Notes: generated from the sequence alone by a model not told the origin. A stretch of DNA of 33,313 nucleotides from an uncultured Candidatus Saccharibacteria bacterium (GCA_964348885.1 CAYGEK010000005.1:1-33313), one strand, 5' to 3'; positions 3,321 to 25,961 are shown, numbered from the stretch's first letter. Numbers and translations are program-made.

Positions 3321-4226
3321 ATGTATAAAGATCTTCCCGAAAAAATATTTGATTTTCTGTCGGCGAGAAAGCGCGCCGTGATGATTGCCGGAGCAGTCAT
3401 TCTTTTGATTACGCCTTTCCCCGCTTACTTTTTGTCGGCCGTTGACGCGAGTGGTAAAGCTTTCGCGTTTGATGTGGCGAAAGGCAGCGGAGTAAAAGAT
3501 ATTGCCACCGGTCTTTACGCGGCGAATCTTATAAAATCGCCGGGAGTTTTTATCGCGTACAGCGCTTTGACTGGTTCGGCGGATGAGTTAAAACCAGGTC
3601 GGTACGTGCTCAGCTCGGCGATGAGTTTGCCGAAATTGAATTCGGAACTGGTCCGCGGTCCGAAAGAGGACGTGGCAATTACGGTGATAGAAGGGGAGAC
3701 GATGGCGGAAGTGGAAGCTTCATTGGTCAGCGCCGGCGTGATTAAGAAGGGAGAGCTAACCAAGCGGCGCGGCCGCTCTCTGGAAGGATTTTTCTTTCCC
3801 GATACTTACCGGTTTTTTCCAAGCTCCACTCCCGAGGACGTGATCGCCCGGTTTATGGGAAATTTTTATGATAAAGCGATGCCTATCTTGAAGGACGCGC
3901 CGAACGCTTATAGCGCGTTAATTATTGCCTCCATTATTGAAAAAGAAGTACCTTTTACCGAAGAGCGTCCGATTGTGGCCGGCATCTTGTACCGTCGTCT
4001 CGCGATCGGCATGGCGCTTCAGGTGGATGCGGCTCCGATTACTTATGAACAGCCGGGACTACCGAAAACTCCGATTTCCAATCCGGGCGCCGATGCGATG
4101 GCTGCCGCCGTCCATCCTAAAAAATCTGAATATCTATATTATCTTTCCGATCCGAAGACCCGCAAAACAATTTTCTCAAAAACTTTTGAGGAGCACGTTG
4201 CGAATAAGTTTAAATACTTGCGGTAG
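3321..4226 (+). CDS. mltG: Endolytic murein transglycosylase MltG (YceG-like)
   Basis: N-terminal TM helix. Motif ASIIEKE...GMALQVDA is typical of the YceG family. Tightly coupled to the SEDS gene. Confidence 0.85.
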   Translation: MYKDLPEKIFDFLSARKRAVMIAGAVILLITPFPAYFLSAVDASGKAFAFDVAKGSGVKDIATGLYAANLIKSPGVFIAYSALTGSADELKPGRYVLSSAMSLPKLNSELVRGPKEDVAITVIEGETMAEVEASLVSAGVIKKGELTKRRGRSLEGFFFPDTYRFFPSSTPEDVIARFMGNFYDKAMPILKDAPNAYSALIIASIIEKEVPFTEERPIVAGILYRRLAIGMALQVDAAPITYEQPGLPKTPISNPGADAMAAAVHPKKSEYLYYLSDPKTRKTIFSKTFEEHVANKFKYLR

Positions 4227-4273
4227 GGTTTTCTCTTTGCTAATCTGACTGAAGTTTATTAAGGAGAGGCGCA

Positions 4274-4540
4274 TTGGAAAATCCCGCGGGTTGGAATGAA
4301 ACCAAAAAGTTGATCGCTCGCGCGCGAGGGGAAGGCGATAATTTCAAATACGCAGTTTTCGCTGAACTTGCCAGTGCCGGAAAATTGAAATCTGACGCGA
4401 AAAGCGAATTGGTCATGGAAGCGATCGCGGAGGCGCAGCGTGACGCCGAAGAGGCGGTCCGAGTGCGCCTCTCTGGAATTTCTTTGGTCAGTCGCATTTA
4501 CAACAAACTTCAAGACAAGGGTTTTCTCACCGGCGAATAG
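4274..4540 (+). CDS. Hypothetical small protein (88 aa, TTG start)
   Basis: SD AAGGAGAGG at 4261-4269 precedes the TTG. An intrinsic terminator follows directly. No family recognised. Confidence 0.5.
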   Translation: MENPAGWNETKKLIARARGEGDNFKYAVFAELASAGKLKSDAKSELVMEAIAEAQRDAEEAVRVRLSGISLVSRIYNKLQDKGFLTGE

Positions 4541-4647: not shown

Positions 4648-4746
4648 TTGACCCCCACACCAAACGAGAAGTGCCGCCTTTCTGGGATTGACATGCTCCT
4701 CGTTATGGTGTGGGGGTTGACAAGGCGAGTAAAAGTAATATATACT
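4648..4746 (+). promoter_or_regulatory. Palindrome-plus-promoter module, copy 1 (upstream of rpoB)
   Basis: Arms TTGACCCCCACACCAAACGAG (4648-4668) and CTCGTTATGGTGTGGGGGTTGACA (4699-4722). TTGACA at 4717-4722, an 18-nt spacer, then TATACT at 4741-4746. The arms are identical to those of the copies at 15620 and 16097. Confidence 0.6.
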
Positions 4747-4988: not shown

Positions 4989-7900
4989 ATGATTAATAAA
5001 TTACCCACCAAAGTTTTCTCCACTCATCCTGGAGCGTTATTTGAGCAGCCAAACCTAGTCGAAATCCAAACCCAGTCCTACAACTGGTTCCTCAAAGGAG
5101 GTCTCTCGGAATTATTCGAAGAGACATTCCCGATGAAGGACTACGCGGGCAAGGACATTGAACTCAAGTTCGTAGATTCTTTCTTTGACGAACCGAAGTA
5201 CGATGAAGCCTACGCGAAATATAAAGACCTGACTTTTGAAGCTCCGCTTCGCGTCAAACTGAAACTTATCAATAATAAAACCAAAGACACCAAAGAACAG
5301 GAGGTGTACTTCGGTGATTTTCCGGTGATGACTCCGCGCGGTACCTTCATCATCAACGGCGTTGAGCGTGTGGTGGTTCCGCAGTTGATTCGTTCTTCCG
5401 GCGCGTACTTCACCGCCAACTTGTATCGCGGCCGCAAATTCTTCGGCGCGAAAGTAATTCCGAATCGCGGCGCGTGGCTGGAGTTGGAAACTGATCCGGA
5501 CGGAGTGATCAGCGTTAAAATTGATCGCAAGCGCAAAGCTCCGATCTCCAACTTGCTCCGCATTTTTGGCATGACCGAGAATGACGACATCATGAAAACG
5601 TTCGCCGATGTGGACAACGGCGATACGAAATACATGGCCGCGACTTTGAAGAAAGATTCCGCGAAGAACAAGGACGAATCTTATATTGAAATCTACAAGC
5701 GCATCCGCCCGGGCGATCTCGCCACGGTGGAAAACGCTTCCAGCTTGATTGACGCTATGTTCCAGCGCTTGGATCGTTATGATCTTTCCGCGGTAGGCCG
5801 TTACCAGTTCAATCAGCGCCTCGGCGCCGCCGGCATCAAGAGCGAATCCCGTCTCTTGGAGCTTGCCGACCTGGTCGCCATCGTTAAAGAGGTGATTCGG
5901 ATGAACAACAGCCAGAATATGGAGCCGGATGATATCGATCACCTCGGTAACCGCCGCGTTCGCGCGGTCGGTGAATTATTGCAGAACAAATTCCGCCTCG
6001 GCCTTGCCCGTATGCGCCGCATTGTGCAGGACCGAATGTCTACCTTGGAGCCGAACACGCTTACCCCGGTGCAGTTGATCAACGCCCGTCCGTTGATGTC
6101 CGCCGTGAAAGAGTTCTTCTCCTCTTCCCAGCTCTCTCAATTCATGGACCAGGTCAATCCGTTGGCCGAATTGGAGCACAAGCGCCGTTTGTCCGCGATG
6201 GGTCCCGGCGGTCTTACGCGTGAGCGCGCCGGCTTTGAAGTTCGTGACGTGCACCACTCCCACTACGGCCGCATCTGCCCGATCGAAACTCCGGAAGGCG
6301 CCAACATCGGTTTGGTTAACCATTTGGCGAGCTACGCCCGTATTAACGACCTCGGTTTTATTGAAACTCCTTATGCAGTAGTGAAGAACGGAAAAGTAAC
6401 CAAAGAAGTCCTCTGGTTAAACGCTTTAGAGGAAGAGCGCAAAAATATCGCCCACGCCGGTGTGCCTTTTGATGAGAAGGGTAACTTGATTGGCGAGGTT
6501 ATTGAAGCCCGTATTAATGGAGAGCCTGGTACTTGCCTCAAGTCCGAGGTTCATTTAATTGATATCGCTCCGAACCAGACCGTGTCCGTGGCGACTTCCC
6601 TGATTCCTTTCTTGGAGCACGACGACGCCAACCGCGCTTTGATGGGTTCCAACATGCAACGGCAGGCTGTCGTTTCCGTAAAATCCAGCGCTCCGTTCGT
6701 GAGCACCGGTATGGAAGATAAAGCGGCCTATGATTCCGGGCACCTTATTTTGGCTACAAAGGATGGCGTTATAGATGAAGTAGACGCCAAGCATATCACT
6801 TTGAAGACCAAAGACGGGGATAAGATTGAATATCCTTTGAACAAGTTCAAGCGTTCCAACCAGTTCACCTGCATCTCCCAGCGTCCGTTGATCGCCAAGG
6901 GCGACAAAGTGAAGAAGGGTCAGGTGTTGGCGGACGGTCCGTCCACCGACAACGGCGTATTGGCGCTCGGCCAGAACCTCGTTGTAGCTTTCCTTTCCTT
7001 TGAAGGTTCCAACTTTGAGGACGCGATCGTGCTTTCCGAACGGGTAGTGGAGAACGACAACTTCACTTCTATTCATATTGAAGATTATTACTGCGATGTC
7101 CGCGACACCAAACTCGGACCGGAAATCACCACTCCGGATATTCCGAACGTGTCCGAAGAGAAACTGAAGAACTTGGACGAAGAGGGTATCGTCCGCATCG
7201 GCGCGGAAGTTAAATCCGGCGACATTTTGGTTGGTAAAATTTCTCCGAAAGGCGAGAGTGAGCTGACCTCGGAAGAGCGCTTGCTTCGCGCTATCTTCGG
7301 CGAAAAAGCCCGTGACGTTAAGGACACTTCCATCACCGTGCCTCACGGTAAGAATGGCCGCGTTATCGGTATCAAGATCTTCTCCCGCGAGCGCGGTGAC
7401 AAGCTGGAGCCCGGTATCATCAAGCGCATCCAGGTGGAAATCGCTCAGCTTCGTAAAGTACGCGCTGGCGACAAGCTCGCCGGACGCCACGGCAACAAGG
7501 GTGTAATTTCCCAGGTTCGCCCGGTAGAGGATATGCCTTATTTAGAAGACGGTACTCCGGTGGACGTAGTTTTGAATCCGCTCGGTGTGGCTTCCCGTAT
7601 GAACCTCGGACAAATTCTTGAAGTCCATTTGGGTTGGGCCGCGAAGAAGCTCGGCTATCGCGCCATTACTCCGGTACTCGCCGGAGCCACGGAAGAGCAG
7701 ATTAAGGAAGAGCTGAAGGCGGCGGGATTGCCGACCACGGGCAAGGTGCCGTTGTATGACGGCCGCACCGGTAAACAGTTCGCGCAACCGGTTATGGTTG
7801 GCGTAATGTATATGTTGAAACTCAACCACTTGGTAGAGGACAAGATTCATATGCGTTCTATCGGTCCTTATTCTTTGATTACCCAGCAGCCGCTCGGCGG

Positions 7901-11782: not shown

Positions 11783-12190
11783 ATGAACGACGAAACAAAA
11801 AAAGAATATGAGATTTCCTTCCTTCTGGCGACTCCGGAAGGGGAGAAAGAGCTGAATGGAATACTCGCTAAGCTCGGCGCGGAAGTTTTCTTCCAGAAGC
11901 CGGCAAGCTCTATCCAGTTGGCTTATAAGATTCAGCGCCACTCCTCGGCTATGTTCGGCTACTATCACTTCCGGGCCACGCCTGCGGTGCTCAAGGAAAT
12001 GAAAGACGCTTTGAATCTGGCTACGGGCGTGCTGCGCTTTCTGATACTGACGCCTCCGGTAAAAATGCCGGTCGCGACAACCGAGCAGGTAGAAAGGGGA
12101 GCGACACGCGTCGAGAAGAAGCCGGTTGCCGAATCCAGAATGCTCAGCAACGAAGCATTGTCGGAAAAGTTGGAAGAAATTTTGAAGTAA
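11783..12190 (+). CDS. rpsF: 30S ribosomal protein S6 (with C-terminal extension)
   Basis: N-terminal YEISFLL... S6 pattern. Sits in the conserved rpsF-ssb-rpsR order. Confidence 0.85.
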   Translation: MNDETKKEYEISFLLATPEGEKELNGILAKLGAEVFFQKPASSIQLAYKIQRHSSAMFGYYHFRATPAVLKEMKDALNLATGVLRFLILTPPVKMPVATTEQVERGATRVEKKPVAESRMLSNEALSEKLEEILK

Positions 12191-12205
12191 GAGTATATTG
12201 AGAAT

Positions 12206-12643
12206 ATGAACCTGAACAAAGTCTTCATCTTAGGCAGATTGACCGCCGATCCGGTTCTCCGCGCTACTCCTTCCGGCCAGCAGGTCGCCAGCTTCTCGCT
12301 CGCGACGAACCGGGTATGGAACGATAAAGCCGGTCAGAAGCAGGAAGCGGTTGAGTTTCACAACATCGTGGTCTGGGGACGCCAGGCGGAGGTTGCCAGC
12401 AAGTTTCTTACCAAAGGCGGCCTCGCCCTCATTGAGGGGCGCATGCAAACCCGCGGCTGGCAGGATAAGCAGGGCCAGAATCGTAAGACTACTGAGATTA
12501 TCGCAGAGCGCATCCAGCTTGGACCGCGCGCCGGTGGTGGGGCTCCGAAGGGCGACTATAATGCTCCCGCCGCCCATAATGAAGCTCCCGTGCCGACGAT
12601 AGAGATAGAGGAAGACATGAAGTCAGAGGATGTTCCATTCTAA
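12206..12643 (+). CDS. ssb: Single-stranded DNA-binding protein
   Basis: OB-fold N-terminus MNLNKVFILGRLTADP. Gly/Pro-rich linker. Acidic tip ending in DVPF. Confidence 0.95.
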   Translation: MNLNKVFILGRLTADPVLRATPSGQQVASFSLATNRVWNDKAGQKQEAVEFHNIVVWGRQAEVASKFLTKGGLALIEGRMQTRGWQDKQGQNRKTTEIIAERIQLGPRAGGGAPKGDYNAPAAHNEAPVPTIEIEEDMKSEDVPF

Positions 12644-12857
12644 AATTATGATTAAACCTACACAGTGCATATTTTGCTCCCAGAATATAGAAGTCATTGA
12701 TTACAAGGACGCGGCTTTTTTGCGCCGTTTTGTTTCCAGCTCCGCCAAGATTACCGACCCACGTTATACGGGAAGTTGCGCCCGTCATCAGCGGAGACTC
12801 GCGGAAGCCGTTAAGCGCTCACGCTATATGGGATTGCTGGCCTTCGTCCGTCGTTAA
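12630..12857 (+). CDS. rpsR: 30S ribosomal protein S18 (the true start may be the ATG at 12648)
   Basis: S18 pattern IDYKD..LRRFVS...KI..RYTG.C..HQR.L..A.KR.R. Confidence 0.9.
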   Translation: MFHSKIMIKPTQCIFCSQNIEVIDYKDAAFLRRFVSSSAKITDPRYTGSCARHQRRLAEAVKRSRYMGLLAFVRR

Positions 12858-12860
12858 TCT

Positions 12861-13391
12861 ATGAATTTGGAGGTTAATATTTTTCAAGCCTTGAATGGGC
12901 TCGTAAACCAGTCGGGAATCCTCGACTGGTTTATCGTTTTTCTTGGAAATTATTCAGCGTATCTGATCGTAGTCTTGGCGGTCTGGTGGATCTGGCGGGA
13001 AAAGAATTGGCGGCTGCAGCTTTATCACTCTTCTTTTATCGCCTTAGCAATCATTATCTCCCGCGGTATCCTGACTCCGATTATAAGATTTTTGCATTCG
13101 CGTCCGCGTCCCTTCGAGTTGATGGATTTCAATCAGCTGATCAATCATGATGCCGGTGCCTCCTTGCCTTCCGGTCACGCCGCCTTTTTCTTCGCCCTGG
13201 CTTTCGCGATTTATTTTTCCGGATACCGGAAGCGTGGCGTTTTTCTGCTGGTGGCGACGTTGCTGATGGGCGCGTCTCGCGTAGCCGGCGGGGTGCACTG
13301 GCCGTTGGATATTGTTGCCGGCCTGTTAACTGGACTAATCGGTGCTGTCGTGGTAAAATCATTGCTTCCCAGAACTTTGATTACTAAATAA
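12861..13391 (+). CDS. PAP2-family phosphatase (undecaprenyl-diphosphatase-like membrane protein)
   Basis: PAP2 motifs PSGHAA and GVHWPLDIV. Several TM helices. Confidence 0.8.
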   Translation: MNLEVNIFQALNGLVNQSGILDWFIVFLGNYSAYLIVVLAVWWIWREKNWRLQLYHSSFIALAIIISRGILTPIIRFLHSRPRPFELMDFNQLINHDAGASLPSGHAAFFFALAFAIYFSGYRKRGVFLLVATLLMGASRVAGGVHWPLDIVAGLLTGLIGAVVVKSLLPRTLITK

Positions 13392-14658: not shown

Positions 14659-14729
14659 CGGGGTGTAGTATATCGGCAGTACGCATGCATGGGGTGCATG
14701 TAGGCCGGGTTCGATTCCCGGCACCCCGA
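14659..14729 (+). tRNA. tRNA-Pro (anticodon GGG); no encoded CCA
   Basis: Cloverleaf folded by hand. Acceptor CGGGGTG/CACCCCG, U8 A9, D-arm GTAT-ATCGGCA-GTAC, anticodon arm CATGC-AT GGG GT-GCATG (U33, G37), T-arm CCGGG-TTCGATT-CCCGG, discriminator A. Confidence 0.9.
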
Positions 14730-14731
14730 CA

Positions 14732-15281: not shown

Positions 15282-15614
15282 ATGAAGTTTGAATTGAAAA
15301 ATTTTGGCGGCAATCTTCCCGATTTCATGCGGTCGGCCGGTTATCGCAATGACGGCATAGATCAGAAGACAAAGGAGCTATGCTTTTACAAAGCTCTCTC
15401 GGAAGGCTTGTACCCGCGTTTTCACGTGTATGCCGTTTGGGGCAAAGGGGATAGCGCTACTTTGAGCCTTCATCTAGACCAGAAAGCCCCGGTATACGCG
15501 GGATCAGCGGCGCATTCAGGGGATTATGAAGGGCCGGTAGTGGAAAAAGAGGCTGATCGGATACGCAACTCCGCTCCCAAGGCCTCTGACTTCCTTATTC
15601 GCCCGCTTGATTAG
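15282..15614 (+). CDS. Hypothetical protein (110 aa)
   Basis: ORF with host-like composition. No family recognised. No SD; the start is preceded directly by the inverted-repeat arm. Confidence 0.55.
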   Translation: MKFELKNFGGNLPDFMRSAGYRNDGIDQKTKELCFYKALSEGLYPRFHVYAVWGKGDSATLSLHLDQKAPVYAGSAAHSGDYEGPVVEKEADRIRNSAPKASDFLIRPLD

Positions 15615-15619
15615 TAGTA

Positions 15620-15714
15620 TTGACCCCCACACCAAACGAGGATCAGCTTCGCTGACCGGCAGGAATCCTCGTTATGGTGTGGGGGTTGACATTTGCCATA
15701 CAATATGGTATATT
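15620..15714 (+). promoter_or_regulatory. Palindrome-plus-promoter module, copy 2
   Basis: The 73 bp at 15619-15691 are identical to 16096-16168. TTGACA at 15686-15691, a 17-nt spacer, then TATATT at 15709-15714. SD GAGGAGGG at 15729-15736, then the ATG at 15744. Confidence 0.65.
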
Positions 15715-15743
15715 TTTATGAGAAAATTGAGGAGGGTTAAGCT

Positions 15744-16013
15744 ATGAATCAGCTGCGGATCAGGCAGGCCATCTCCGCGCTTTCGGATCAGTACGAGCTG
15801 GCGACCCGATCCGACGGCGAGGCCGTGGCGAGTGAGGGGGACGCCTTGGAGTGCGGTCTGGAGATCCTGACCCCCGACGAGCTGCGTCGCCGCCTTCAGA
15901 GCCATCTGGCGCGCGAGCAGAATATCGCCGGTCACGTAGGCCAGCTCTACCGGAACGCGCGTCAGGCGCGCGCCGAGGGCGTGGACCTGGACAAGCTCGC
16001 CGAGGAGAGTTAG
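15744..16013 (+). CDS. Small GC3-rich hypothetical protein A (89 aa)
   Basis: Consensus promoter, strong SD and ATG upstream. By hand count about 75 of 89 codons end in G/C, far above neighbouring genes. An intrinsic terminator follows. Confidence 0.6.
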   Translation: MNQLRIRQAISALSDQYELATRSDGEAVASEGDALECGLEILTPDELRRRLQSHLAREQNIAGHVGQLYRNARQARAEGVDLDKLAEES

Positions 16014-16041
16014 GCTGGAGGAAGCTTCGCTCCCTTAGGAC

Positions 16042-16077
16042 ATCCCCTTATCGCCAATCGGCATAAGGGGATTTTTA
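16042..16077 (+). terminator. Intrinsic terminator after ORF A
   Basis: ATCCCCTTAT(C)GCC / GGCATAAGGGGAT stem followed by TTTTT. Confidence 0.8.
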
Positions 16078-16096
16078 ATGCGTCAGAAGCAGGGGA

Positions 16097-16191
16097 TTGA
16101 CCCCCACACCAAACGAGGATCAGCTTCGCTGACCGGCAGGAATCCTCGTTATGGTGTGGGGGTTGACAAATTAGGTTTAGTATGCTATATT
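16097..16191 (+). promoter_or_regulatory. Palindrome-plus-promoter module, copy 3
   Basis: Identical palindrome to copy 2. TTGACA at 16163-16168, a 17-nt spacer, then TATATT at 16186-16191. SD TAGGAGGG at 16215-16222, then the ATG at 16229. Confidence 0.65.
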
Positions 16192-16228
16192 GTTCGGGTA
16201 CATTAAGAGTGTTTTAGGAGGGTTGATC

Positions 16229-16387
16229 ATGGACAATCTGGGCGCGGACAAGGAATCCGAGGAAGTGCTGGAGGAGCTGGACCAGGAGAGCGAGGTCCTG
16301 AAGAAGGACTGGCATCACCGGCGGCCCCTGCAGCTCGTGGATCCCACGACCGGCCTGATGGCCAGAGCGATCGGGATCTTCCAGTAG
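16229..16387 (+). CDS. Small GC3-rich hypothetical protein B (52 aa, acidic N-terminal half; starts MDNL)
   Basis: ATG 6 nt after the SD. About 46 of 52 codons end in G/C by hand count. The ORF-track start at 16190 lies inside the -10 element, so I trimmed it. Confidence 0.55.
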   Translation: MDNLGADKESEEVLEELDQESEVLKKDWHHRRPLQLVDPTTGLMARAIGIFQ

Positions 16388-16411
16388 ATCTATCCTACGC
16401 GTAAGGTTTTT

Positions 16412-16436
16412 GGGGAGGATGTTCCTCCCCGCCTTT
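16412..16436 (+). terminator. Hairpin GGGGAGGA-TGT-TCCTCCCC (weak T-tract); possible terminator of ORF B
   Basis: Perfect 8-bp GC-rich stem. The downstream sequence GCCTTTAAT is only weakly T-rich. Confidence 0.45.
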
Positions 16437-16642
16437 AATCAGCTCGCAACCTCCGGTTGCGGTCTGATATGGAGGAGGATAATAAGATGAAGTGAATTTC
16501 GGCAGTAGAGTAGCTGGCCACTAAAACAAATCAGTAGGTGGCCACCTTTCTCCAGTCCGTGACGATTGCGTCGTGGTCTGGAATCAAGGTAGAATGTTTT
16601 TCTGTGCTTTTTGAAATATAGTTTTGTTGGGAGGGCGGCGAA

Positions 16643-16861
16643 ATGGACAATCTTAACGGTTACGGATTGAACGTGAACGCCGGCGCGGACGCCGACGATG
16701 ACGAGCAGTTCGTGAACGAGCTTCGCGAGGGGCGGAGCGGCTGGTCCCGGGCGATGCGCGCGATGAATCGCGGGTATCACGCGAGGCAGCCGCGGACCAT
16801 CAATCTGGAAGGTTCCGGCGAAATCGAGGTGGGCAAGGGAGCCATCATCCGGCAGTTCTAG
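16643..16861 (+). CDS. Small GC3-rich hypothetical protein C (72 aa; starts MDNL, like ORF B)
   Basis: GGGAGGG SD-like run before the ATG. About 59 of 72 codons end in G/C. Shares the N-terminal MDNL and an acidic-then-basic layout with ORF B. Confidence 0.5.
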   Translation: MDNLNGYGLNVNAGADADDDEQFVNELREGRSGWSRAMRAMNRGYHARQPRTINLEGSGEIEVGKGAIIRQF

Positions 16862-17277
16862 TTCCCCCTGTTCTACAATCGAGGAGGCTGCGTGCTACGT
16901 TTTCTGAGGCAGTTTCTGTAGATGTTGGTCGGGTGGGCGGGCCCCGACCTAAAAAAACAAACCGCAATACACTTGAACAACGCATCGCCGACCGCTGGGG
17001 CGAGCGGCCCGAGAATCACCCAAGGATCCAGTCGGAAGATTGAATCCAAAACGTGAGGGCTCGACCGCTCGCCCCATCCCCGAACGATTCAGGGAGGAGG
17101 GCCAATGCTTCGTAGAACCTAGGCCCACTAAGAGGGGTCGCCAAAAGTCCCGAGGAGCTGCGATAAAAGTGGCTTCTGGGTTGGCTAAACAAAGGCCAAA
17201 ATCGTGGACACGCTCTAGCCTTACCACCTAGAGCAGCATCCGGTTAGAAAGAAGCATCCCGACACGGCAAGCAGTAA
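16862..17277 (+). ncRNA. Candidate large structured non-coding RNA, or a structured 3' UTR of ORF C
   Basis: GC-rich with no convincing ORF. Many helices, e.g. a roughly 16-bp helix GGGGCGAGCGG(C)CCGAG 16997-17012 with CTCG(A)CCGCTCGCCCC 17060-17075, GGTCGGG/CCCGACC at 16928-16949, and GCTCTAG/CTAGAGC at 17212-17234. It ends at a strong + strand terminator. Confidence 0.35.
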
Positions 17278-17318
17278 CCCCCGTTCAGCGAAAGCTGGGC
17301 GGGGGATTTTTATTTTTT
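17278..17318 (+). terminator. Strong intrinsic terminator
   Basis: CCCCCG-TT-CAGC-GAAA-GCTG-GG-CGGGGG followed by ATTTTTATTTTTT. Confidence 0.85.
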
Positions 17319-17357
17319 AATGCTGTATTCTTAAATAAGTTGTTTGAGAGGTGTGAC

Positions 17358-18023
17358 GTGAAGTGGCTGCTCGTAATCGCAATCATCATATTACTGCTGC
17401 CGCTCCTCGGCTGCGCCCGGGCACTTTTAATTGACCAGAGGAGTGGGGTTCATTTCGTGGTATACGCTAACGATGTTCCGATTGAAAAATTGGATTATAT
17501 TGAAAATGCGATTAAGATGGTTCGCCACATGACCAAGCCGGAGATTGTCTTTCATATTCTAGAGCCCGACTCGGTTCATCTTGGCAAAACTTGGATGGGC
17601 GGCAGTGCCGCCGCGCACCTATGCTATATCGGCGTTGGTCGTGTGTGCATGAGCGCCAACTATATCTGCTACCGGACAATCTTTCATGAAGTGGGGCATC
17701 TCTACCATTCTCGCCGCAATCGCGAGTCCCGACGTTTTCATCTTGATTGGGTAGCGCTTGCGGGACCGGTATATATTCAGGATACGAAGCTTCCGAATAC
17801 TGATGGCATTCTCACGAACTATAGTCGCGGCAATCCCGGTGAGGATATCGCCGAATGGGTCGCGGAATGTTACGCGTATCTCGCCGAAGGCGTGAATAGT
17901 TGCATTACCGGTAATCTGGCGGTGAAGACCGACCCGCGCTATCGGCAGAAGCTAGCATTGCTGCACTTGCACGGATTCTTCACGGACGCCGATTATGAGA
18001 AACTTAAGCCCCTTTTCCAATAA
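17358..18023 (+). CDS. Putative lipoprotein zinc metallopeptidase (HExxH, gluzincin-like), paralog 1
   Basis: A GTG start gives MKWLLVIAIIILLLPLLGC (signal peptide plus lipobox Cys). HEVGH motif and downstream GEDIAEWVAECY, where the Glu is a possible third ligand. The ORF track starts at 17340. Confidence 0.75.
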   Translation: MKWLLVIAIIILLLPLLGCARALLIDQRSGVHFVVYANDVPIEKLDYIENAIKMVRHMTKPEIVFHILEPDSVHLGKTWMGGSAAAHLCYIGVGRVCMSANYICYRTIFHEVGHLYHSRRNRESRRFHLDWVALAGPVYIQDTKLPNTDGILTNYSRGNPGEDIAEWVAECYAYLAEGVNSCITGNLAVKTDPRYRQKLALLHLHGFFTDADYEKLKPLFQ

Positions 18024-18036
18024 GGGGTTTTATTTT
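18009..18036 (+). terminator. Intrinsic terminator (stop codon in the loop)
   Basis: CCCCTT / AAGGGG stem followed by TTTTATTTT. Confidence 0.7.
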
Positions 18037-18068
18037 ATAGTGTGGGAAGTTGTTTGAACGGGGGCAGT

Positions 18069-18758
18069 ATGCGTTATTTGTCGGCGCTCATCCTTATTTT
18101 GTCGCAGATGGGCTGCGCTTCAAGATTCCGATTGCCGGCTGACCTGACGACGGGCAAGCCGGTCAGCTATCGGACTCCCGATATCATCGGCGCCGATGAC
18201 CAGCAGAAGACTCTGATTTTGGCAGCTCTGGCGAAGATGCCGGCGGTAATGAGCGATCCGATTCGGAAGATAAGACTCGACCAGGATCTGGCGCATTTTA
18301 AGAGCTCCGGACGAGTCATCATGCCAATCGGACATCGTTGCCCGGATAATCCCAGAGTTATCTGCGTGCGATCTCCGCATTTGTCCATGCAGCTAATCTG
18401 GCACGAGGCGACGCACATCTACGCCTACCATCTTAGCGAGTATCTGAAAAATGACGGCGCCTACAAGTTTTATAAAATTTGGGGCGAAGTTGCCGGCGAC
18501 GTGTATCATGAAGATGCCAAAGTGCCCGAATCCGAAGGGGTGCTGACGGATTACGGCCGGACCAATATCGGCGAAGATATCGCGGAGTGGGTGGAGGAGT
18601 GTTACTACTACCTCTATATCAGCAAAACGTACTCGTCCATTTCAACGAACCCTCATTTCAAGAAGGACGTGCGTTATCAGAAGAAGTTGAAGATGCTTCA
18701 CGAGCATGGCTTTCTTACGGAATCACAATACAATCACCTGGAACCGCTATTCAAATAG
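18069..18758 (+). CDS. Putative lipoprotein zinc metallopeptidase (HExxH, gluzincin-like), paralog 2
   Basis: The ATG at 18069 gives MRYLSALILILSQMGC (lipobox-like). HEATH motif and GEDIAEWVEECY. Clearly alignable with paralog 1 through to the C-terminal ..HGF(F/L)T...Y..L.PLF. Confidence 0.75.
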   Translation: MRYLSALILILSQMGCASRFRLPADLTTGKPVSYRTPDIIGADDQQKTLILAALAKMPAVMSDPIRKIRLDQDLAHFKSSGRVIMPIGHRCPDNPRVICVRSPHLSMQLIWHEATHIYAYHLSEYLKNDGAYKFYKIWGEVAGDVYHEDAKVPESEGVLTDYGRTNIGEDIAEWVEECYYYLYISKTYSSISTNPHFKKDVRYQKKLKMLHEHGFLTESQYNHLEPLFK

Positions 18759-18769
18759 CGGTTTTTTTA
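18743..18769 (+). terminator. Intrinsic terminator
   Basis: ACCGCTAT / ATAGCGGT stem followed by TTTTTTT. Confidence 0.8.
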
Positions 18770-23939: not shown

Positions 23940-23991
23940 TTGACATACTCTAATTAATAGTGTATTATATGCGAGTAAGTAGCACATCCAA
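23940..23991. promoter_or_regulatory. Overlapping divergent promoter candidates that share the -10 region
   Basis: Plus strand: TTGACA 23940-23945, 17-nt spacer, TATTAT 23963-23968. Minus strand: TTGGAT (rc of 23986-23991), 16-nt spacer, TATAAT (rc of 23964-23969). Confidence 0.45.
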
Positions 23992-24213
23992 ATAGCTGCC
24001 TCCGGGCAGCTCCCTAGTCGGAATTCATACAAAAAGCAGCTTATTCAGTAATTTCAGTTTTTGAGTTAGAGGAAGCGTTAGTAGTTTGTGTGTAGATTCT
24101 AGTGTTACCGCCATGGGCGGGCAAAGAATGAAAGAATTAGAAAGTAGATAGATTGTGACTAGGGAGCTGATTTGAGGGAAAGAGCTCGGGCTTTAAGCCC
24201 GGGCTCTTTTGTT
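23975..24213 (+). ncRNA. Structured leader or small RNA (about 240 nt) between the + strand promoter and alaS, ending in an intrinsic terminator
   Basis: Perfect 12-bp long-range helix AGCTCCCTAGTC 24008-24019 with GACTAGGGAGCT 24157-24168. Local hairpins at 23994-24011 and CCGCC-ATG-GGCGG. Terminator at 24179-24213. Confidence 0.4.
24179..24213 (+). terminator. Intrinsic terminator 15 nt upstream of the alaS ATG
   Basis: AGAGCTCGGGCTT / AAGCCCGGGCTCT stem followed by TTTTGTT. It closely resembles the hairpin at 14229-14258. Confidence 0.7.
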
Positions 24214-24227
24214 CTATATTAGAAGCT

Positions 24228-25961
24228 ATGAAGTCAGAGCAGATTCGCCAAAGTTTTTTAGACTTTTTTAACTCCAAAGGCCACTCCGTGGTGCCGTCCT
24301 CTTCGCTCATTCCGGACGATCCGTCGGTGCTTTTGACCACCGCCGGTATGCAGCAGTTCAAAAAATATTTCACGGGCGAACTGGATGCATTAAAAGATTT
24401 TGGTAGTAAGAATACCGCTTCCGTGCAGAAGTGTTTCCGCACTTCCGATATTGAAGAAGTGGGCGATCGCACCCATCTGACTTTCTTTGAGATGCTGGGT
24501 AATTTTTCTTTTGGTGGCTATCTGAAGAAAGAAGCGATTCATCTGGCGTATGAATATATAACTAAAGTACTGGGCATCAGCTCCGATCGTTTGACGGTAA
24601 CGGTCTTCGCAGGTCAGGACGGCGTGCCGTACGATCAGGAGTCTTTTGATATCTGGCATAAGGAAATCGGCATGCCGGTTGAGAAAATAAAAAAGTGCGG
24701 CCGCGCCGATAACTTCTGGGGCCCGACCGGCAATGAGGGTCCGTGCGGCCCGACCACCGAGATCTATGCCGATGGCGTGGAGATTTGGAATCTCGTCTTC
24801 AATCAGTACTATCAAAAATCCGATCGGACACTGGAGCCGCTGAAAACTCCGGGCGTGGACACGGGCATGGGATTGGAGCGATTGGTCATTATGATGCAGG
24901 GAGTGGAGGATGTATTTCAGACCGATCTTTTTGAGGGGTTAATTAAAAACATCAACGAGGTCGCTCCGACCTTAAAAGACCGGGAGGTAAGAGTTTTTGC
25001 CGACCATCTGCGTTCTTCCATATTTTTAATCGCCGACGGTGTGCGTCCGTCTAACAAAGAAGCGGGATACATCCTTCGTCGGCTTTTGCGCCGCGTCATC
25101 GCGTATCAGACTATTTATGACGCCCATGCCGATCTTTTCGCTCTCGCCCACGCGGCTGTGAAGGAAAAATATGGCAAGCTCTATCCCGAAGTAAACGACC
25201 CGAGGATTTTAGAGGTAATGGATTCGGAAAAAGAAAAATTTGAAACAGCCATTGCCAAGGGCTTGAGGGAGATAAAAAAACACGCGGCAATCGGCACAAA
25301 AGAAGCCTTCCATCTTTATGAGTCGTTCGGCCTGCCGTTTGAGTTGATTAAAGAGCTGGCTCCGGAGGCTTCCAAAGACTTAGATAGAAAAGAATTTGAT
25401 GAGGCGTTTAAAAAGCATCAGGAGCTTTCCCGCGCGGGAGCGGAGAAGAAGTTCGGCGGCCACGGTCTTCTATTAGATACCGGCGAATTGAAGGCGAAGG
25501 ACGAGATTGAACTCAAGAAAGTAACTCGCCTTCATACGGCCACTCATCTGATGCAGGCCGCGCTCAGGAAGGTGCTCGGCCCGGACGTCCAGCAGAGGGG
25601 ATCGGACATCACCGCCGAACGGACGCGGTTTGATTTCGCGTTTCCTAGAAAACTTACACCGGAAGAAATTAAGAAAGTTGAGGAGTTGGTCAACGGGGCG
25701 GTGGCGCAGGATCTGCCGATGGGCTTTAAAGAAATGGCGAAAGAGGAAGCGGAAAAGACGGGCGCGCTTTATTTCTTCAAACAGAAATATCCTGAGCGCG
25801 TAAAAGTATATTTCGCGGGGCATACTTTGGACGACGCGTTTTCTAAAGAATTCTGCGGCGGCCCGCATGTTACGCATACTCTTGAGGTTGGAAAATTTAG
25901 AGTAATGAAGGAGGAAGCAGTGGGAGCGGGAGTGCGAAGGATCAGAGCCATTGTTGATTAA
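24228..25961 (+). CDS. alaS: Alanine--tRNA ligase, compact form (577 aa)
   Basis: N-terminal class II AlaRS core (FLDFF..KGH, TTAGMQQFK, FEMLGNFSFG, GMGLERL). Editing-type motifs HTATH ... CGGPHV near the C-terminus. No C-Ala domain. Confidence 0.93.
   Translation: MKSEQIRQSFLDFFNSKGHSVVPSSSLIPDDPSVLLTTAGMQQFKKYFTGELDALKDFGSKNTASVQKCFRTSDIEEVGDRTHLTFFEMLGNFSFGGYLKKEAIHLAYEYITKVLGISSDRLTVTVFAGQDGVPYDQESFDIWHKEIGMPVEKIKKCGRADNFWGPTGNEGPCGPTTEIYADGVEIWNLVFNQYYQKSDRTLEPLKTPGVDTGMGLERLVIMMQGVEDVFQTDLFEGLIKNINEVAPTLKDREVRVFADHLRSSIFLIADGVRPSNKEAGYILRRLLRRVIAYQTIYDAHADLFALAHAAVKEKYGKLYPEVNDPRILEVMDSEKEKFETAIAKGLREIKKHAAIGTKEAFHLYESFGLPFELIKELAPEASKDLDRKEFDEAFKKHQELSRAGAEKKFGGHGLLLDTGELKAKDEIELKKVTRLHTATHLMQAALRKVLGPDVQQRGSDITAERTRFDFAFPRKLTPEEIKKVEELVNGAVAQDLPMGFKEMAKEEAEKTGALYFFKQKYPERVKVYFAGHTLDDAFSKEFCGGPHVTHTLEVGKFRVMKEEAVGAGVRRIRAIVD

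Follow-up and report, generated by a model that had tools for sequence, protein, structure and literature searches.

Proposed small-protein and structured-RNA transcription units at a conserved position upstream of dnaG in a candidate phyla radiation bacterium

What is served by two strong-promoter units, with GC-rich micro-proteins and a structured RNA, upstream of the primase gene dnaG? The question is raised by positions 15620 to 18769 of a 33,313-nt stretch of DNA from an uncultured Candidatus Saccharibacteria bacterium (GCA_964348885.1, CAYGEK010000005.1:1-33313), the whole of which is referred to here as the window. A sequence-only reading of the window had described palindromes, promoters, three micro-open reading frames (ORFs), a structured RNA and two lipoprotein genes, and all of these features were found where it placed them. 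The answer that we favor, although tentatively, is a pair of strong transcription units: one would yield a dual-function small RNA, the other an mRNA for small proteins with a structured tail that engages ribosomes and a terminator, which together would gate a promoter-less lipoprotein gene. The stretch as a whole would be a vertically inherited, lineage-specific expression locus of a Parcubacteria-like clade of the candidate phyla radiation (CPR), in which two independent transcription units with consensus promoters are followed by optional lipoprotein genes. The features of the locus are listed below; SD denotes a Shine-Dalgarno site.

15620–15691, plus strand: palindromic element, copy 1, 72 nt, with arms CCCCCACACCAAACGAG and CTCGTTATGGTGTGGGGG, flanked by TTGAC direct repeats.
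15686–15714, plus strand: promoter P1, TTGACA, 17-nt spacer, TATATT, with TG extension; 11 of 12 consensus positions.
15744–16013, plus strand: ORF A, an orphan small protein of 89 aa with a GGAGG-type SD.
16026–16041, plus strand: conserved 16-nt element TTCGCTCCCTTAGGAC, between ORF A and its terminator.
16044–16078, plus strand: cassette 1 intrinsic terminator, with the hairpin CCCCTTATCGCC...GGCATAAGGGG and then a T-run.
16097–16168, plus strand: palindromic element, copy 2, 72 nt, identical to copy 1.
16163–16191, plus strand: promoter P2, TTGACA, 17-nt spacer, TATATT, with TG extension; 11 of 12 consensus positions.
16229–16387, plus strand: ORF B, 52 aa, acidic, with a GGAGG-type SD and the motif (D/G)WH(H/D)RR...DP(T/I)TG.
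16412–16642, plus strand: structured spacer and leader of ORF C, with hairpins, a two-codon ORF, AUCAAGGU, a U-rich tract and an SD.
16643–16861, plus strand: ORF C, 72 aa, with a GGAGG-type SD, an FDADxDE motif and a C-terminal basic motif.
16862–17277, plus strand: conserved noncoding structured RNA, the 3′ part of the P2 transcript.
17278–17322, plus strand: strong intrinsic terminator, a 12-bp stem (17278–17305) with nine G-C pairs, followed by a T-run.
17358–18023, plus strand: lipoprotein 1, 221 aa, with a lipobox, HEVGH and the conserved Glu of GEDIAEW (zincin-like).
18069–18758, plus strand: lipoprotein 2, 229 aa, with a lipobox, HEATH and its own terminator.

The window was compared with related or overlapping contigs and loci, labeled L001 to L100. 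Some dozen related genomes, CPR and Parcubacteria-like, share the gene order tRNA-Pro, cupredoxin-like gene, gene for a 110-aa protein, cassettes, optional lipoprotein genes, dnaG and rpoD. With the 110-aa gene as the anchor, the segment from the cupredoxin-like gene through the 110-aa gene, variable cassettes and an optional lipoprotein gene to dnaG is found in L007, L008, L013, L015, L017, L018, L021, L097 and L098; L020 has 90 nt only at the cassette position. The sequence-only reading had called this the only clearly accessory stretch of the window. Because the slot from the 110-aa gene to dnaG and its order recur in so many relatives, the stretch is not an accessory island. The synteny search that the same reading proposed finds the gene set in relatives. 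Two other species (L007; L005/L008) likewise have the small ORFs, the RNA and two lipoprotein genes together and in this order, with ORF A absent from L008. ORF C and the RNA lie directly upstream of dnaG, with no lipoprotein gene, in L018, L021, L022 and L097. L023 contains ORF C and the RNA on a contig that ends before the downstream gene, and L017 has a mini-ORF leader and a lipoprotein gene with no ORF C. The proposal of a co-localized functional unit is therefore only partly supported: the parts co-occur in order, but ORF A, ORF C, the lipoproteins and the palindrome are separable.

The coding status of the micro-ORFs is supported by composition and divergence. The G+C content at third codon positions (GC3) is 0.82–0.89 in ORFs A–C (0.84 in A and 0.89 in B), as compared to 0.44–0.66 in all 28 other window genes, which include rpoB and ribosomal protein genes. 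G+C content at the three codon positions is approximately 0.7, 0.4 and 0.85, a strong codon periodicity that, with the GGAGG-type SD sites, bears out the earlier description of three GC3-rich micro-ORFs. A GC3 excess of the small ORFs is also observed in L007 (host GC3 0.42–0.49), L013 and L018; it is lower, at 0.75, in the cassette-1 ORF of L021. The ratio of nonsynonymous to synonymous substitution rates (dN/dS) is 0.34 for ORF A, 0.19 for ORF B and 0.32–0.57 for ORF C, and synonymous divergence is below that of neighboring genes. By these measures, ORFs A, B and C are real genes under purifying selection.

The three proteins belong to very small families. ORF A is 54% identical to its L007 homolog over the aligned core, and its conserved C-terminal core reads CGL..I(L/I)(T/S)..E(L/M)RRRLQS..ARE.N..GHV..LYR.ARQAR..GVDLD. 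Its family comprises two protein clusters (one relative besides itself) among 5.8 billion proteins. A weak motif, hydrophobic-x-hydrophobic-hydrophobic-(T/S)-P-x-E-hydrophobic, is common to the ORF A-like proteins of L015, L017, L021 and L097. AlphaFold2 modeled ORF A with low confidence (predicted local distance difference test, pLDDT, 68; predicted template modeling score, pTM, 0.37). ORF B is 49% identical to its L007 homolog. Homologs of ORF C were found by hidden Markov model in L008, L013, L018, L021, L022 and L023, and L097 was added by inspection; the family spans nine loci in all, in eight different contexts (L018 and L019 match). Wherever the contig reaches a downstream gene, ORF C is followed by dnaG or by one or more lipoprotein genes, including in L022, where the 110-aa gene is elsewhere. 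A phmmer search with ORF C against 1.84 billion representatives returned only itself and one spurious repeat protein. The small proteins have no match in Pfam, NCBIfam, PHROGs, PADLOC or PDB sequences, and seven ORF C family members have no Pfam match. The statement that none of the five proteins matches a nameable family thus stands for ORFs A–C, whereas the lipoproteins, as described below, have distant relatives. ORFs B and C do share an N-terminal MDNL in the window, but their relatives have not kept it. L007 contains an extra GC-rich ORF of 130 aa (3886–4278; GC3 0.90) between its ORF A and ORF B homologs, preceded by a leader hairpin of the S3 type described below. The window lacks an equivalent of this ORF, so the set of small ORFs changes from one species to another.

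Unit 1 would run from P1 to the terminator at about 16078, and its core would be a small-RNA gene, consisting of what the relatives all keep, an element antisense to helices 69 and 70 (H69/H70) of 23S rRNA and the terminator. The presence of this 16-nt element after ORF A is a new observation. The element TTCGCTCCCTTAGGAC is the reverse complement of the canonical 23S rRNA sequence GUCCUAAGG(U)AGCGAA, that is, GUCCUAAGGUAGCGAA, at about positions 1922–1937 in Escherichia coli. The matching segment is the 3′ strand of H69 into H70, which is among the most conserved 23S segments, and the canonical sequence was confirmed in all 5,426 E. coli genomes. The element is present at the homologous place on the plus strand in 11 loci, is more degenerate in L017, and has the consensus UUCGCU-N-CC(U/C)(U/C)AGG(A/C)C. 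No other match to the 16-mer at three or fewer mismatches occurs in 647 kb. The antisense similarity to canonical 23S extends to 20 of 23 positions in the window, 23 of 26 in L007, where it reaches the H69 loop, and 29 of 36 in L021. Three loci (L013, L014 and L096) carry a first cassette without any ORF, in which the promoter is followed by approximately 25 nt, the element, hairpins and the terminator. The element thus remains when the ORF is missing, which makes it, rather than ORF A, the conserved core of unit 1, and the retention of promoter, element and terminator in these ORF-less units supports the reading that we favor. The window’s 89-aa ORF, lying between promoter and element, would make its transcript a dual-function RNA. 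Dual-function small RNAs such as RNAIII/hld, SgrS/SgrT and SR1/SR1P likewise combine a small ORF, a conserved RNA element and a terminator, and in unit 1 the RNA outlives the ORF. Unit 1 differs from them in having no known target mRNA, in an element that matches an rRNA instead of an mRNA, and in the size of ORF A, which at 89 aa exceeds most examples.

Unit 2 is predicted to extend from P2 to the terminator at 17305 as a polycistronic mRNA of approximately 1.1 kb for proteins B and C. Its noncoding parts contain the following features.

16412–16430, plus strand: spacer hairpin.
16438–16468, plus strand: hairpin S1, conserved with L008.
16487–16495, plus strand: two-codon SD-led ORF ATG-AAG-TGA, which reads MK-stop in the window and MR-stop at the matching place in L008.
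16516–16543, plus strand: hairpin S2.
16552–16581, plus strand: hairpin S3, 12 bp, with compensatory changes in 5 of 12 pairs across four copies.
16892–16921, plus strand: mini-ORF1, VLRFLRQFL-stop (peptide MLRFLRQFL).
16927–16949, plus strand: hairpin H1, with one compensatory pair.
16997–17007 and 17065–17075, plus strand: long helix H2, with 3 of 11 pairs compensatory.
17105–17122, plus strand: mini-ORF2, MLRRT-stop, preceded by a C-rich tract and GGGAGGAGGG.
17122–17277, plus strand: 3′ domain of the RNA, with five compensatory pairs relative to L008.

Hairpin S3 is followed by the conserved AUCAAGGU, the U-rich tract and the SD leader. The segment 16862–17277 is without codon periodicity and folds better than shuffled sequence (z = −4.45). 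With its covarying helices, it is indeed the roughly 420-nt noncoding, structured RNA that the sequence-only reading had described, although that reading missed both the SD-led mini-ORFs and the 23S-antisense element of unit 1. The covariation of S3, H2 and the 3′ domain lends support to the reading that we favor. No Rfam 15 model matches the RNA at the gathering score or even at E < 10. The Rfam comparison of the RNA, the spacer and the palindromes gave chance-level matches only (NsiR1, which is terminator-like, at E = 0.08, and, for the palindrome, miRNA models), and the relatives gave none. Among known RNA types, RNase P, transfer-messenger RNA, 6S, signal recognition particle RNA and group I/II introns were weighed by their motifs and rejected; the analysis also covered ARAGORN. 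A decayed ORF was considered and rejected as well, since codon periodicity is absent and tblastn gave no similarity with ORF D or the other ORFs. Hairpin H1 (GGUCGG...CCGACCU; 4683–4705, approximately, in L007) resembles 23S helix 71 (H71) in the sense orientation, and in L007 it shares GUCGG and the 10-mer GUUCCGACCU with canonical rRNA. This likeness may be a coincidence.

The mini-ORFs are conserved in sequence and in placement. GGAGG is approximately five times denser in this stretch than in the rest of the window, and each SD-plus-start site is matched in L008 and L007, with the order kept. The mini-ORF1 peptide is MLRFLRQFL in the window, MHFRLRQFG in L008, MLSLLRQFG in L017 and MLQKWERNFG in L007, and it is kept through synonymous change (AGG/CGG in ...LRQFG). 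Its stop lies 5 nt before H1 in the window, L008, L007 and L017a. The mini-ORF2 peptide is MLRRT in the window and MLRST in L007. A second mini-ORF type, MPIGGWG-stop or MLQCIGGWG-stop, is found in L018, L021 and L097 (...IGGWG in L097); between L018 and L021, MPIGGWG shows third-position differences only (ATA/ATT, GGA/GGC, TAA/TAG). The RQF(G/L) type occurs with a downstream lipoprotein gene in four of four loci and the IGGWG type with dnaG in three of three. The P2 transcript of L017 contains two mini-ORF–hairpin units and a terminator before the lipoprotein gene. No promoter-like site was found between the 17278 terminator and the start of lipoprotein 1. The conserved mini-ORFs, the stop-to-hairpin spacing, the link to the downstream gene and the promoter-less lipoprotein gene together suggest a translation-coupled leader. 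The SD-led mini-ORFs in the intercistronic hairpins and in the long 3′ region would load ribosomes, and the structured tail and strong terminator would insulate the downstream gene. Ribosomes terminating 5 nt before H1 could then set read-through into the promoter-less lipoprotein gene in the manner of an attenuator or leader.

The two tandem genes downstream of this terminator encode paralogous proteins that are 33% identical, each with an L-x-G-C lipobox and an HExxH motif, as the sequence-only reading had proposed. The lipobox Cys, HExxH, the Glu-Asp in GEDIAEW and three cysteines are conserved, and G18, C19, H110, E111, H114 and E162-D163 are invariant across five sequences. Lipoprotein 1 matches PF15890 (Peptidase_Mx1) at E = 3.5e-4 and 20.4 bits, below the cutoff of 25.6, and TIGR04549 (substrate import-associated zinc metallohydrolase lipoprotein) at E = 6e-4 and 19.1 bits, below the cutoff of 75. 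Lipoprotein 2 matches neither. A weak match to PDB 4l7a was also obtained. The AlphaFold2 model of lipoprotein 1 has a pLDDT of 77, and its best Foldseek matches are M1/LTA4H zincins, with E values of at least 7e-3 and template modeling scores of at most 0.31. The lipobox Cys, HExxH and downstream acidic ligand that mark proteins of the PF15890/TIGR04549 kind are all present, the size is similar, and the sequence and fold matches are weak but consistent. The differences are that scores fall under the curated cutoffs, that the family is tiny (three protein clusters including the query’s own among 5.8 billion proteins, and six GTDB loci), and that the neighbors are small ORFs, dnaG and rpoD rather than the SusC/SusD/TonB neighborhood of TIGR04549. 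From sequence, the lipoproteins appear to be new, distant members of this kind of zincin lipoprotein. A distant homolog in L009 is preceded by two tandem units of approximately 125 nt (2300–2550), each of which combines an anti-SD:SD hairpin (CCCTCC...GGAGGG) with an ORF of 19 codons, a further hairpin and a weak terminator. That tandem anti-SD:SD leader units also precede this distant homolog supports the gated-leader reading. Another homolog, in L006, has directly upstream of it a long imperfect hairpin of approximately 170 nt (175–355; ACCCACCCTCATCCTTCC...GGAAGGATGGGGTGGG) with no Rfam match.

Two known arrangements resemble unit 2. Leader-peptide attenuators (trpL, pheL and the pyrBI leader) resemble it in having short leader ORFs, here of 2–10 codons with their own SD and start, upstream of a strong terminator that precedes a promoter-less gene, and hairpins at a fixed short distance from a stop. 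They differ in that the region here is at the 3′ end of a protein-coding mRNA, is approximately 420 nt long and contains several mini-ORFs, and in that neither a cluster of sensed codons nor an alternative antiterminator fold was found. The second arrangement is the macromolecular-synthesis operon rpsU-dnaG-rpoD of E. coli, which has an internal terminator after its small upstream gene; rpsU, encoding ribosomal protein S21, is the usual gene upstream of dnaG. Here too a small ORF that is predicted to be strongly expressed, ORF C, lies upstream of dnaG-rpoD with a terminator between, at a clade-conserved position. However, ORF C was considered and rejected as S21, with no Pfam match and no tblastn similarity of E. 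coli or Bacillus subtilis S21 at this locus, and several small ORFs, a long structured RNA and sometimes lipoprotein genes intervene. In L018 (6055–6075), L021 (3860–3880) and L097 (2445–2465), a TATACT box stands 6 nt before the start of dnaG, suggesting that the dnaG mRNA of these relatives is leaderless or nearly so.

Several observations weigh against the two-unit, gated-leader reading. For the leader, no mutually exclusive terminator/antiterminator pairing involving the 17278 terminator was identified in folds, alignments or by inspection, with few sequences to compare, and the peptides MLRFLRQFL, MLRRT, MK and MPIGGWG are without regulatory codon runs. Mini-ORF2 ends 155 nt before the terminator in the window, and the helix covariation rests on three to four sequences per helix. 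The link between mini-ORF type and downstream gene may reflect only the shared ancestry of two sub-clades. Moreover, the RNA accompanies ORF C also in loci whose dnaG carries a promoter of its own, so its role may be in the stability of the ORF C mRNA rather than with the downstream gene. For unit 1, the window organism’s own 23S rRNA reads CGUUCUAAGGUAGCGCAA, deviating from the canonical sequence. Because of this difference, the element would form only 9+4 bp with it, with one mismatch. A blastn-short comparison of the element with the own 23S gave no more than an 11-mer. The element also lies partly in a local hairpin, where its probability of being unpaired is 0.17–0.69. The own 23S gene is at 5679–8689 of L100, and its H69–H71 region (7690–7790) is off the bacterial consensus, with GCGAUAACUAUAAUCGUUCUAAGGUAGCGCAAUUCCUUUUCGGGUAAGUUCCGAAG as compared to GGCCGUAACUAUAACGGUCCUAAGGUAGCGAAAUUCCUUGUCGGGUAAGUUCCGACC in E. 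coli. Covariation of the element with the own 23S was considered and rejected, since the own 23S departs from the canonical sequence and the element does not follow.

The palindromes could have a history of their own. Copies 1 and 2 are identical from the left TTGAC to the right TTGACA, and the latter serves as the −35 box of P1 in copy 1 and of P2 in copy 2. The arms are 17–18 nt with one bulge, and the hairpin upstream of P1 has a predicted free energy of approximately −44 kcal/mol. The earlier description of an identical palindrome-promoter-SD unit is correct for the palindrome and −35 box but not for the promoter spacers and SD regions, which differ and are not homologous. A 42-aa ORF called at 16078–16206 runs through copy 2 and P2 and is almost certainly spurious. 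A third copy lies elsewhere in the window.

4648–4722 (to 4746 with its promoter), plus strand: third palindromic element, whose arms match those of copies 1 and 2 but whose loop differs.

This copy is fused to a TTGACA-18-TATACT promoter approximately 250 nt upstream of rpoB, and its loop itself holds a TTGACA. One alternative, which is possible although doubtful, is that the palindrome is a miniature mobile element that targets TTGAC and for that reason inserts at −35 boxes, resembling miniature inverted-repeat transposable elements (MITEs) or repetitive extragenic palindromic (REP) sequences, or else an operator through which a DNA-binding protein co-regulates rpoBC and the small-ORF units. 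Terminal inverted repeats, flanking direct repeats (TTGAC on both sides in three of three copies) and several copies, as expected of MITE/REP elements, are all present. The identical arms, the differing loop of copy 3, the unrelated promoter spacers and an identity that ends exactly at the TTGAC repeats suggest a mobile or copied element, and the palindrome is absent from the orthologous P1 of L007 and L008. However, a palindrome with identical 17-nt arms is present at the cassette 1/P2 junction of L097, a degenerate copy is at the same junction of L017, and the cassette 1 terminator of L098 and L099 is formed by CCCCACAC/GTGTGGGG. The palindrome is therefore old at that junction, where it may be a terminator, insulator or operator hairpin. 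In addition, only three copies occur in the approximately 62 kb of this genome examined, and no transposase is known. Neisseria Correia elements and the enterobacterial REP and enterobacterial repetitive intergenic consensus (ERIC) sequences are promoter-associated palindromic repeats, and they share with this element a short inverted repeat with conserved arms, a variable center, short direct-repeat flanks, a position at promoters and occurrence in several copies. The palindrome differs from them in that three copies only are seen and in that its arms are kept at one orthologous junction in other species, suggesting a terminator, insulator or operator role. Within the two-unit reading, it would be a separate conserved inverted repeat of the cassette 1/P2 junction, from which copies have reached P1 and the rpoB promoter in this genome.

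An unlikely alternative is that the structured regions act in trans. The unit 1 RNA would pair with nascent 23S rRNA (H69–H71) to chaperone, check or throttle 50S assembly, loosely as a small nucleolar RNA (snoRNA) does, and the 420-nt RNA would be an independent noncoding RNA that arises by processing of the ORF C mRNA at its 3′ end. Conservation in 11–12 species of an element whose reverse complement is a universally conserved stretch of 23S, the extended antisense similarity and the survival of the element after ORF loss all fit such a role. A consensus promoter and an element placed before a terminator are likewise features of many base-pairing small RNAs. The weak predicted pairing with the own 23S and the partial sequestration of the element in a local hairpin, both noted above, argue against it; moreover, pairing with the conserved AA of the rRNA is weaker for the variants CCCUAGG and CCUCAGG, and the target is buried in mature 50S subunits. 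Archaeal and eukaryotic guide or chaperone RNAs (C/D box and H/ACA small RNAs and U3-type snoRNAs) offer a comparison, in that at least 16 contiguous nt are antisense to conserved rRNA near H69. The antisense stretch of at least 10 nt that characterizes an rRNA guide is present relative to canonical 23S, whereas complementarity to the own 23S is imperfect. Inspection of the 11 aligned instances, in which the antisense stretch is contiguous, showed no box C (RUGAUGA) or box D (CUGA), with no CUGA after the element, and no ACA box with a bipartite pocket; the host, in addition, is bacterial. The literature searched yielded no bacterial precedent for an rRNA-antisense RNA of this kind. No conserved partner for the element was found in the P2 RNA or the contig, where a duplex scan was dominated by GC-rich chance matches. 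A bolder version seems quite improbable to us. In it, the first cassette would be a bacterial small RNA with an H69–H70/71-antisense core; by pairing with nascent (or foreign) 23S, it would control the assembly of the large subunit or act as its chaperone. It would be fused in some species to a small protein and lie beside a second RNA, in which arrest-type mini-ORFs (...RQFG-stop, with a hairpin 5 nt further on) would sense translation.

It is highly unlikely that the GC-rich stretch is a horizontally acquired or mobile island, such as a phage, plasmid or integrative element at tRNA-Pro, with selfish or anti-defense small ORFs. Its G+C content reaches 0.70 as compared to approximately 0.50, its codon usage is unlike that of all host genes, its small proteins are fast-evolving orphans, and, as the sequence-only reading had indicated, a tRNA-Pro gene is nearby. 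These features are outweighed by the recurrence of slot and order in about a dozen genomes, with divergence in step with neighboring genes. That the GC3 excess is maintained in genomes of 44–55% GC points to selection and not to recent import. Neither an integrase nor another mobility gene was seen, no PHROGs or PADLOC match was obtained, the palindrome is unmatched in viral contigs, and normal-GC genes separate the tRNA from the island. Two of the flanking features are the following.

14659–14730: tRNA-Pro(GGG).
15282–15614: gene for the 110-aa protein.

The 110-aa protein has 45 relatives, some of them named Parcubacteria or Harrisonbacteria, and its family of 46 clusters is confined to CPR and shows the invariant motifs YPRFH...LH(L/I)DQKAP.Y.G..AH.G.Y.G. 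It has no match in Pfam, NCBIfam or PDB and is the best anchor for finding the locus. Judged by these relatives, by the few relatives of ORF A and of the lipoprotein and by the six GTDB loci, the organism belongs to a rare lineage of CPR/Patescibacteria. The ORF A cassette (15619–16096) is flanked by two identical 73-nt direct repeats and could be lost by recombination between them.

A very remote reading takes the micro-ORFs as precursor peptides, either secreted effectors or similar to ribosomally synthesized and post-translationally modified peptides (RiPPs), that are processed by the two HExxH lipoproteins. The small ORFs do adjoin two metallopeptidase-like lipoproteins in three species and have acidic, leader-like N-termini. 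However, ORF C and the RNA occur without any lipoprotein in L018, L021, L022 and L097, and elsewhere there are homologs of the lipoproteins without these ORFs. Modification enzymes, transporters and signal peptides are all absent, and the lipoproteins face the cell exterior, whereas the ORF products are without export signals.

An assembly chimera, which the sequence-only reading had named among the findings that would undo its proposal, has negligible probability: the GC steps at the boundaries are sharp and the short contigs L002 (521 nt, with ORF A only) and L003 break at the repeated palindrome, as expected of a repeat, but L001 (ENA ERZ27247830), running from a PAP2 gene to the RNA, covers the 110-aa gene and left boundary, L003 (Logan ERR3094294), running from palindrome 2 to rpoD, includes the right boundary, and the two differ from the window at only three bases, all within the RNA. 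The whole region is also carried by a 51-kb contig from ERZ27247828, and other species share the layout. Because independent assemblies from other ENA/Logan samples reproduce the region, it is not a chimera.

Two further observations concern neighboring sequence. On the window’s contig, approximately 10 kb past the window end (L093, about 11830–13360), gene calls identify a diversity-generating retroelement, with a bAvd accessory gene and an RVT_1 reverse transcriptase beside a 68-aa ORF. At 23940–24228, a perfect TTGACA promoter lies approximately 260 nt upstream of the alanyl-tRNA synthetase gene, whose leader has no Rfam (T-box) match.

CPR organisms are thought to depend on scavenged nutrients. 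Because their genomes are tiny, yet this orphan micro-protein and RNA locus beside dnaG-rpoD is conserved and driven by consensus promoters, it likely matters to the cell. The locus adds three new small-protein families with constrained synonymous sites, and a new structured RNA with translated-looking mini-ORFs that offers a testable translation-sensing leader for surface peptidases. If the element of unit 1 does pair with rRNA, it would be a ribosome-directed RNA without a bacterial example in the literature searched. Should none of these readings hold, a well-documented lineage-specific operon remains.

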